Shown: positions 47,147 to 47,931 of the stretch, in pieces | How the letters are laid out: every line of letters begins with the position of its first letter | How positions within the stretch are numbered: the first letter of the stretch is position 1 | Source of the DNA: Escherichia coli | GTDB taxonomy: Bacteria > Pseudomonadota > Gammaproteobacteria > Enterobacterales > Enterobacteriaceae | Length of the DNA stretch: 64,000 bases | Strand: one strand, 5' to 3' | Assembly: GCF_009931435.1 (NCBI RefSeq) | Contig: NZ_CP043414.1 | Translations under genes and position numbers: made by a program | The notes under the pieces: generated by a model | What the model saw: only the letters and a program-made list of their open reading frames with translations | What the model was told of the DNA's origin: nothing | The model's database searches: none

Positions 47147-47173
47147 AAAAAAACCCGCTCGGTCACGGGTTTT
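47147..47173 (-). terminator. tR'-like intrinsic terminator of the late leader transcript
   Basis: On the - strand AAAACCCGUGACCGAGCGGGUUUUUUU: 7-8 bp GC stem, 8-nt loop, U7 tail, about 45-50 nt downstream of the predicted pR' start. Confidence 0.6.
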
Positions 47174-47223
47174 ACTAGCTTTGCCATCACGTATAAAAAC
47201 GGCAAAATATCAGATTCACACGA

Positions 47224-47252
47224 AATATATGCCTTTTTATCTACTTTTGCAA
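47224..47252 (-). promoter_or_regulatory. pR'-like late promoter (Q-dependent antitermination region)
   Basis: On the - strand TTGCAA -35 (47252-47247), 17-nt spacer, TATATT -10 (47229-47224), starting 8 nt after the Q stop codon. Confidence 0.5.
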
Positions 47253-47259
47253 TACTTTG

Positions 47260-47931
47260 CTATGAAAATGCCGCCTTTTGTTTTGAACGTGTTCCCTCCA
47301 CCAACAATAAAGCTTCACCATCCAGCCGATGAAAAATGTGTTTCATTGCAACCCAGTGACCAGTAAATGTCTTGGACCAGTTTTTGGTTGTTACTCCCAC
47401 CAGTAACGCCAGTTCCTGGTATTCGTAACCTTCCCCACCAAAAAGCTCAGCTTTTACCGCCTGCGCCGCCAACCAGATCAACGTCTTCAGGCGCACCAGA
47501 GTTTTTCCTGCAATTTTTCTGGTACCGGATTGAGCATTAAATTCAGTCCACGCCCACTGCGTTATCGCGATCTGATGCTCCCAGCAAATGCTACCGCTGT
47601 AACACCACAGCAGCCAGGCTTTATGATGTTCTTCAAGAGACAGAACGGCGCGTCGCCATGATGATGTCGAAAACTCAACCGGACTGACCAGGGCAATTGA
47701 TGAACCTTTCGCCAGCGATTGCTTTCCCGGGATCGGTGGATTATCCAGCGTTACTATTTTTCCAGTGACCTTATCGCGGCACCGGATTTTTTTACGTCTG
47801 TAACGCCCTGTATTGAACATGGCATTCTCCTGCCAGGCTTCAAGCTGACCTTTTGTTGCTCCACTCAAATCAGCGGTGGCGATCGTGAGCTGCTCACGCA
47901 CAAACTGTAAATACTGGTTATTCATGCGCAC
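47260..47931 (-). CDS. Late gene antiterminator Q-like protein
   Basis: 223 aa ORF directly upstream of the pR'/tR' module and overlapping the rusA stop by 10 nt; call is positional. Confidence 0.55.
   Translation of the reverse strand: MRMNNQYLQFVREQLTIATADLSGATKGQLEAWQENAMFNTGRYRRKKIRCRDKVTGKIVTLDNPPIPGKQSLAKGSSIALVSPVEFSTSSWRRAVLSLEEHHKAWLLWCYSGSICWEHQIAITQWAWTEFNAQSGTRKIAGKTLVRLKTLIWLAAQAVKAELFGGEGYEYQELALLVGVTTKNWSKTFTGHWVAMKHIFHRLDGEALLLVEGTRSKQKAAFS

Follow-up and report, generated by a model that had tools for sequence, protein, structure and literature searches.

A probable phage 82-type late-gene switch in a lambdoid prophage of Escherichia coli

Our analysis indicates that the region between positions 47147 and 47925 of a 64,000-nt stretch of E. 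coli DNA (assembly GCF_009931435.1, contig NZ_CP043414.1; the whole stretch is called the window here) very probably constitutes the late-gene switch of a lambdoid prophage, built on the phage 82 pattern. The element is of an ordinary, well-studied kind, another member and not a new kind of switch. Its parts are listed below, with plus-signed positions counted from the predicted transcription start.

47260..47925, minus strand: Q antiterminator gene of the Q82 family, 221 aa plus TAG, assigned by its PF06323 match and DNA identity
47247..47252, minus strand: -35 hexamer TTGCAA of the late promoter (pR' homologue), invariant in our alignment (A1)
47230..47246, minus strand: 17-nt spacer AAGTAGATAAAAAGGCA, putative location of the Q-binding element (QBE), placed from PMC4914094 and conservation
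47224..47229, minus strand: -10 hexamer TATATT, found by promoter scan; the conserved hexamer columns are invariant in A1
47217, minus strand: predicted +1, a G, the 7th nt 3' of the -10, with the 6-nt discriminator layout seen in relatives
47204..47212, minus strand: predicted sigma70-dependent pause element, extended -10-like TGaTATTTT, matching the description of 82 pR'
47212-47211, minus strand: TG of this element, +6/+7
47209-47204, minus strand: TATTTT of this element, +9 to +14
47201..47203, minus strand: GC-rich discriminator-like element GCC, +15 to +17, with the same bases at the same position in 82 pR'
47192..47193, minus strand: predicted pause site, T at +25 (47193) and A at +26 (47192), from the pause descriptors of 82 pR'
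47179..47207, minus strand: hairpin HP1 (+11 to +39), predicted fold with a 10-bp stem UUUUGCCGUU/GAUGGCAAAG
47147..47173, minus strand: predicted intrinsic terminator (tR' homologue), 9-bp stem, loop GACCGA and T7

The preliminary description had called the gene Q-like from its position, and this call is now borne out by the sequence of the gene. The open reading frame matches PF06323 with an E-value of 3.8e-90 and 301.9 bits over model positions 1-216 of 220, and this is the sole Pfam family that it matches; PF03589 and PF06530 are not matched. The three Q families are Q21 (PF06530), Q-lambda (PF03589) and Q82 (PF06323) (PMC9388147). The DNA of the gene is 78% identical to Q of phage 82 (X92588) and 77% identical to Q of phage 434, which its depositors describe as "Q82-like" (OL657226.1), while a 99.8% identical gene in E. 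coli EC43 is labelled antitermination protein Q in RefSeq. A sequence search against the PDB returned no meaningful match, including to the solved Q-lambda and Q21 structures, which is consistent with the absence of any solved Q82 structure. Q82 is the sole Q family without a solved structure or a settled mechanism; its mechanism is still open (PMC9388147), and a closed-nozzle mechanism has been questioned for it. The Q start codon, ATG at 47925, overlaps the stop codon of the upstream rusA-like gene (ATGA). RusA (PF05866) is encoded directly upstream of Q on the same minus strand; Q closes the nin region and precedes the lysis and morphogenesis genes, which are on the same strand.

In most members of the Q82 family, the protein has the C-terminus [ILV]-A-K-x-[DN], whose A-K codons supply the -35 hexamer TTGCAA. 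In the window, a TAG (47262-47260, minus strand) stands in place of CAG/AAG eight codons ahead of the usual end. The Q protein is therefore 8 codons shorter than in phage 82, phage 434, PPompW and most relatives, and the -35 hexamer, which lies inside the last Q codons in most relatives, begins at the 8th nt past the stop. The early TAG is common to 36 IMG/VR loci, that is, the window and 35 others, with the -35 just outside the open reading frame. This short-Q lineage has diverged to a dS of ~0.27 at a dN/dS of 0.13-0.22, and its reading frames are intact, with no further disruptions. Because 36 diverged loci keep intact frames at such ratios, the 221-aa Q is under purifying selection as a maintained, presumably active protein.

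The promoter proposed in the preliminary description, TTGCAA and TATATT separated by 17 nt on the minus strand, 8 nt past the Q stop, is present as described. It matches 9 of the 12 consensus positions, and the 44-51 kb segment holds 11 such sites against 10.2 +/- 2.7 in shuffles; the match alone is thus not above chance, and the significance of the predicted promoter is a matter of homology and conservation. We place +1 at G47217 because all published 82 pR' landmarks then fall into place. The predicted transcript would start with GAA, whereas its relatives start with AAA. The wild-type transcript of 82 pR' also starts with AAA, which leads to initiation stuttering, and a +2G mutant was used against it (PMC5001585). 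The QBE of phage 82 sits between the -35 and the -10 (PMC4914094). Spacer positions -29, -28, -23 and -19 are invariant among 90 unique sequences, a constancy that in most lineages is confounded by the overlapping constraint of Q coding.

On the plus strand, TTGCAATACTTTGC at 47247-47260 conforms to TTGCN6TTGC, the consensus of lambda CII sites, and shares bases with the palindromic -35 of the late promoter; the homologous site is annotated as paQ in the phage 434 record. A CII-activated antisense promoter (paQ) was considered at this TTGCN6TTGC site and found to be unsupported. There is no acceptable -10 at the expected distance, the second TTGC repeat is degenerate in the Klebsiella and Enterobacter relatives, and the near-identical EC43 prophage has a YdaT-family gene at the cII position and no annotated CII. 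A plus-strand open reading frame at 47055-47366 (103 aa) was taken as an antisense artefact of the overlapping Q gene and leader.

A pause element, absent from the preliminary description, was found inside the leader. The late promoter of phage 82 carries an extended -10-like pause element and a discriminator, GCC at +15 to +17, that is needed for the pause (PMC5001585). Its polymerase pauses at +25/+26, with U as the favoured, natural 3' end, and the elemental pause sequence has a G at -11, none at -10 and no G after the pause, while an insertion at +18 puts a G at the pause site (PMC5001585). Our comparison with 82 pR' used the positions given in that text, with phage 434, PhiR47_2 and PPompW as proxies, and seven of its descriptors agree when the window is taken together with the relatives PPompW and PhiR47_2: the AAA start (in the relatives, at +1 to +3), the extended -10-like element, the GCC of +15 to +17, a G in position -11 of the elemental pause sequence, U at +25, a base other than G at +26, and, in PPompW and PhiR47_2, a G at +24. 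We regard the homology of the leader region with 82 pR' as secure, since many independent positions agree.

The terminator is predicted from a stem AAAACCCGU/GCGGGUUUU at 47173-47165 and 47158-47150 (+45 to +53 and +60 to +68), a 6-nt loop, and a run of seven T at 47153-47147 (+65 to +71), so that the predicted terminated RNA is about 69-71 nt long. It had earlier been described as a strong terminator about 45-50 nt downstream of the promoter. The GC stem and the U7 tract hold, and the stem starts 44 nt past the predicted +1, but its strength is middling: at -11.4 kcal/mol, it ranks 13th of the 14 comparable hairpin-plus-T6 sites in the window. Such sites are tenfold enriched over shuffles (14 against 1.35 +/- 1.4). 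A stock terminator scanner missed this one, because part of its T-run is paired in an A/U extension of the stem. Four further strong terminator-like hairpins with T-runs lie downstream on the minus strand (43842-43864, 41277-41307, 33973-34019 and 21112-21136), which is consistent with a need for processive antitermination; a Q-modified polymerase would need to read through them.

A second leader hairpin, HP1, likewise absent from the preliminary description, starts inside the pause element and has a predicted folding energy of -9.9, with a z-score of -3.2 against shuffles. In a Klebsiella lineage, this position is taken by a hairpin whose stem sequence is unrelated (z about -4). HP1 is weak in PPompW, PhiR47_2 and the Enterobacter types (z -1.5 to -1.8) and absent from phage 434 and another lineage. 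A universal structural element is ruled out by these weak or null scores, and HP1 is treated here as a lineage-variable feature, not as a defining part of the predicted module.

To follow the leader across the family, we ran four IMG/VR scans with divergent Q82-family proteins and added GenBank phages. Enough DNA followed Q at 324 loci, which yielded 184 unique leaders. A promoter pattern of the form TTGCAA(-like)-17-YAYAKT is present in 161 of the 184. The search pattern took in the promoter only, and no transcribed position was part of it. Among these 161 leaders, TG at +6/+7 occurs in 158 and TAnnnT at +9 to +14 in all 161, and position +25 is a pyrimidine in every one (T in 147). The information content is 1.65-2.0 bits at +2, +4, +6 to +11, +14, +17 and +25, with 1.85-2.0 bits at each pause-element position, and after the 1.65 bits of +25 no more than 0.1-0.5 bits remain at +26 and beyond; the conservation of the leader thus stops at the pause site. 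By strict criteria, at least 140 of the 161 leaders have a terminator (108 of them ending at +70 to +79), and several of those outside the 140 have interrupted T-runs. The stems differ among lineages, so it is the presence of the terminator that is conserved, not its sequence. Phages of E. coli, Klebsiella, Enterobacter and Salmonella keep the -35 and -10 hexamers with 17 nt between them and, 15 nt further on, the -10-like element, while the flanks are not conserved. The Q82-family genes of the Gifsy-1 type (loci L005, 2170-2260, and L251-L279) have a different promoter, TTGACA-18 nt-TATATT; their initial transcribed region lacks TGnTAnnnT at +6, and a pause element, if any, would be placed or built differently.

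The far edge of the switch is marked by a loss of homology. A megablast search matched 1366 of 5426 E. coli genomes, including O157:H7 and other STEC strains, and most matches in E. coli genomes and phages end at query positions 811-819, which is the T-run at about 47147. Lineages with a shared leader have an identity to the window of 0.88 between the promoter and +25 and of 0.80 between +26 and the T-run; over the 70 nt that follow, the value is 0.55, which is about background level. Homology with PPompW, 434 and other lineages likewise stops no more than a few bases from the T-run, near 47147. Because homology ends there, this point is, to judge from the sequence comparison, a mosaic recombination breakpoint, and Q, promoter and terminator together behave as a single mosaic module.

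In the EC43 prophage, which is 99.8% identical, Q is followed on its own strand by three small accessory genes, including a DNA methyltransferase gene, by holin genes and an endolysin gene, and by terminase, portal, capsid and tail genes. The window holds uninterrupted open reading frames of matching size for terminase, portal, capsid and tape measure. In the EC43 prophage, a frameshift interrupts one gene of the lysis region, and some carriers of this prophage type may therefore be partly defective. In the window, accessory (moron-like) genes occupy 44685-47005 on the minus strand, between the terminator and the lysis genes. They encode a 237-aa multi-pass membrane protein without a Pfam match, a 65-aa product with a weak HTH-like match, and an N6/N4 DNA methyltransferase. 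A hok/sok-type toxin-antitoxin locus lies at 50638-50962 (minus strand), with a 70-aa Hok-like open reading frame and an Rfam sok match of 105 bits, as in Qin-like prophages. The sole tRNA gene of the window, for tRNA-Ser (anticodon TGA) at 17398-17485 on the plus strand, probably marks the attachment end of the prophage.

We considered whether these elements could instead be a decayed relic, in which the cis elements are inherited from an 82-type phage, Q is inactivated by its premature TAG or the prophage is cryptic, nothing ever overcomes the terminator, and only a constitutive short RNA is made. A Q that ends 8 codons before those of phage 82, phage 434, PPompW and most relatives would suit such a relic, as would the frameshifted lysis-region gene of the near-identical EC43 prophage. 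However, the TAG is shared by 36 loci that have diverged to a dS of ~0.27 with intact frames and a dN/dS of 0.13-0.22, the Pfam model is covered up to position 216 of 220, and the terminase, portal, capsid and tape measure frames of the window are uninterrupted and of the expected sizes, which together make decay very unlikely. Alternatively, the hairpin could be a mere terminator of the early operon that contains Q, with the promoter hexamers a chance match and no late promoter at all. The hairpin does stand just past the end of the gene, and the promoter scan is unenriched (11 found against 10.2 expected in shuffles). Yet the hexamers, their spacing and the -10-like element are kept in the phages of four genera while the flanks are not, conservation stops exactly at the known pause position, and the layout has its homologue in 82 pR', which has been characterised by experiment; a look ahead of the lysis genes, though not exhaustive, also revealed no other candidate for a late-operon promoter. 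A chance match is therefore exceedingly improbable.

The third possibility would add to the switch rather than replace it: besides its cis role, the terminated leader of ~70 nt might act in trans as an sRNA in lysogens, in the manner of StxS. The 5' end of the leader is predicted to be single-stranded for 10 nt, and HP1, an A-rich linker and a terminator that closes with U7 follow. We take this overall shape to resemble that of Hfq-dependent sRNAs, and HP1 is more stable than its shuffles (z -3.2). Moreover, pR' promoters are constitutive in lysogens, and the terminated transcript of Stx phages is an Hfq-binding sRNA (PMC7547250). Against this, the pause element, at the level of DNA, accounts for every strongly conserved position of the leader, the stretch from +26 to the terminator is poorly conserved, HP1 is weak or absent in several lineages, and the leader has no Rfam match. 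At gathering thresholds, Rfam gave no match relevant to the switch anywhere in the window, and at E-values up to 10 the segment 46900-47400 gave only sub-threshold matches to leader peptides and sRNAs (E >1). An StxS-like function is accordingly unlikely in our estimation. The hairpins of E. coli and Klebsiella, at the same position with unrelated stems, would fit either an sRNA or an effect of HP1 in cis, and there is a small chance that the leader is more than a by-product, as a constitutive prophage sRNA or through a tuning by HP1 of termination or of Q82 action in cis.

We then propose a model for the phage 82-type switch, the steps of which are drawn from the phage 82 literature (PMC4914094, PMC5001585, PMC7547250). 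RNA polymerase with sigma70 would start at about G47217 constitutively, including in the lysogen. Region 2 of sigma70 would re-bind the non-template TGaTATTTT at +6 to +14, and the polymerase would scrunch to the pause at +25/+26. Without Q, the polymerase would escape, terminate at the T-run (47153-47147) and free the leader RNA of ~70 nt. After induction, Q made from the early rightward transcript would bind its site in the promoter spacer, engage the paused complex with the help of NusA and travel with the polymerase. The Q-modified polymerase would then read through the terminator and the further terminator-like hairpins of the late region, and the late operon would be expressed.

These results place a predicted late promoter, pause site and terminator in a prophage type that occurs in roughly one in four complete E. 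coli genomes, which is of value for annotation. The Q82-type qut signature (TTGCAA, 17 nt, the -10, TGATAT at +6 and Y at +25) could be used for the automatic annotation of late promoters. The window also presents a naturally 8-residue-shorter Q that is kept by selection. Since Q82 is the one Q family without a solved structure or a settled mechanism, natural variants of Q and of the spacer could serve to define its QBE. Current understanding is unchanged; the short-Q lineage under selection, the variable leader hairpin and the possible leader sRNA are mildly novel.

Compared with phage 82 itself, the window has a Q of the same family (78% DNA identity) in the same place after rusA, the same -35 TTGCAA, 17-nt spacer and -10, a short leader with an intrinsic terminator, the same extended -10-like element at +6 to +14, GCC at +15 to +17 and U at +25. 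It differs in its Q, which is 8 residues shorter and leaves the -35 8 nt past the stop instead of inside the last Q codons, in its predicted start (GAA instead of AAA), in the A at +24 where phage 82 has G, and, with respect to the phage 82 type, in the terminator stem and the downstream genes. The spacer AAGTAGATAAAAAGGCA shows several differences from AACTGGATTAAAAGCCA of phage 434, while the phage 82 record ends at the Q stop, within the spacer. Phage 434, PhiR47_2 and PPompW (STEC prophages) share the layout of TTGCAA, 17 nt, -10 and a 6-nt discriminator, and their transcripts begin with AAATCTGATAT or AAATTTGGTAT; the nin region of PhiR47_2 is organised like that of phage 82. In phage 434 (OL657226.1), a homologous Q is followed by the same -35 and spacing, TGgTATGTT as the pause element at the matching position, and a terminator that likewise has the AAACCCG...GGGTTT form, annotated 49 nt past the Q stop. 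However, phage 434 lacks HP1, has a shorter leader (T-run end at about +54) and carries GTA rather than GCC at +15 to +17.

Among other short RNAs of late promoters, StxS of the Stx phages is constitutively made in lysogens and ends at tR', and short RNAs also arise from the late promoters of phages 21, phi80, 82 and P22 (PMC7547250). StxS derives from a 258-nt transcript that RNase E cuts to 74 nt, with proven Hfq binding and targets, whereas the leader described here is unrelated to it in sequence as far as tested (no Rfam match).

The preliminary description had drawn its parallel with the pR'/6S RNA/tR' arrangement of lambda. The predicted logic is indeed the same, with a constitutive late promoter, a QBE (putative in the window) in the promoter, a sigma70-dependent proximal pause, a terminator close downstream and processive antitermination of a late operon, and late genes do lie downstream. 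The 6S RNA leader of lambda is 194 nt long, compared with about 70 nt predicted here, and lambda Q belongs to the unrelated family PF03589, in contrast to PF06323 in the window. In lambda, the pause falls at +16/17 with a discriminator GGG at +7 to +9 (PMC5001585), whereas the -10-like hexamer at +9 to +14 in the window predicts a pause at +25. By both Q family and pause position, the proper model for this switch is phage 82.
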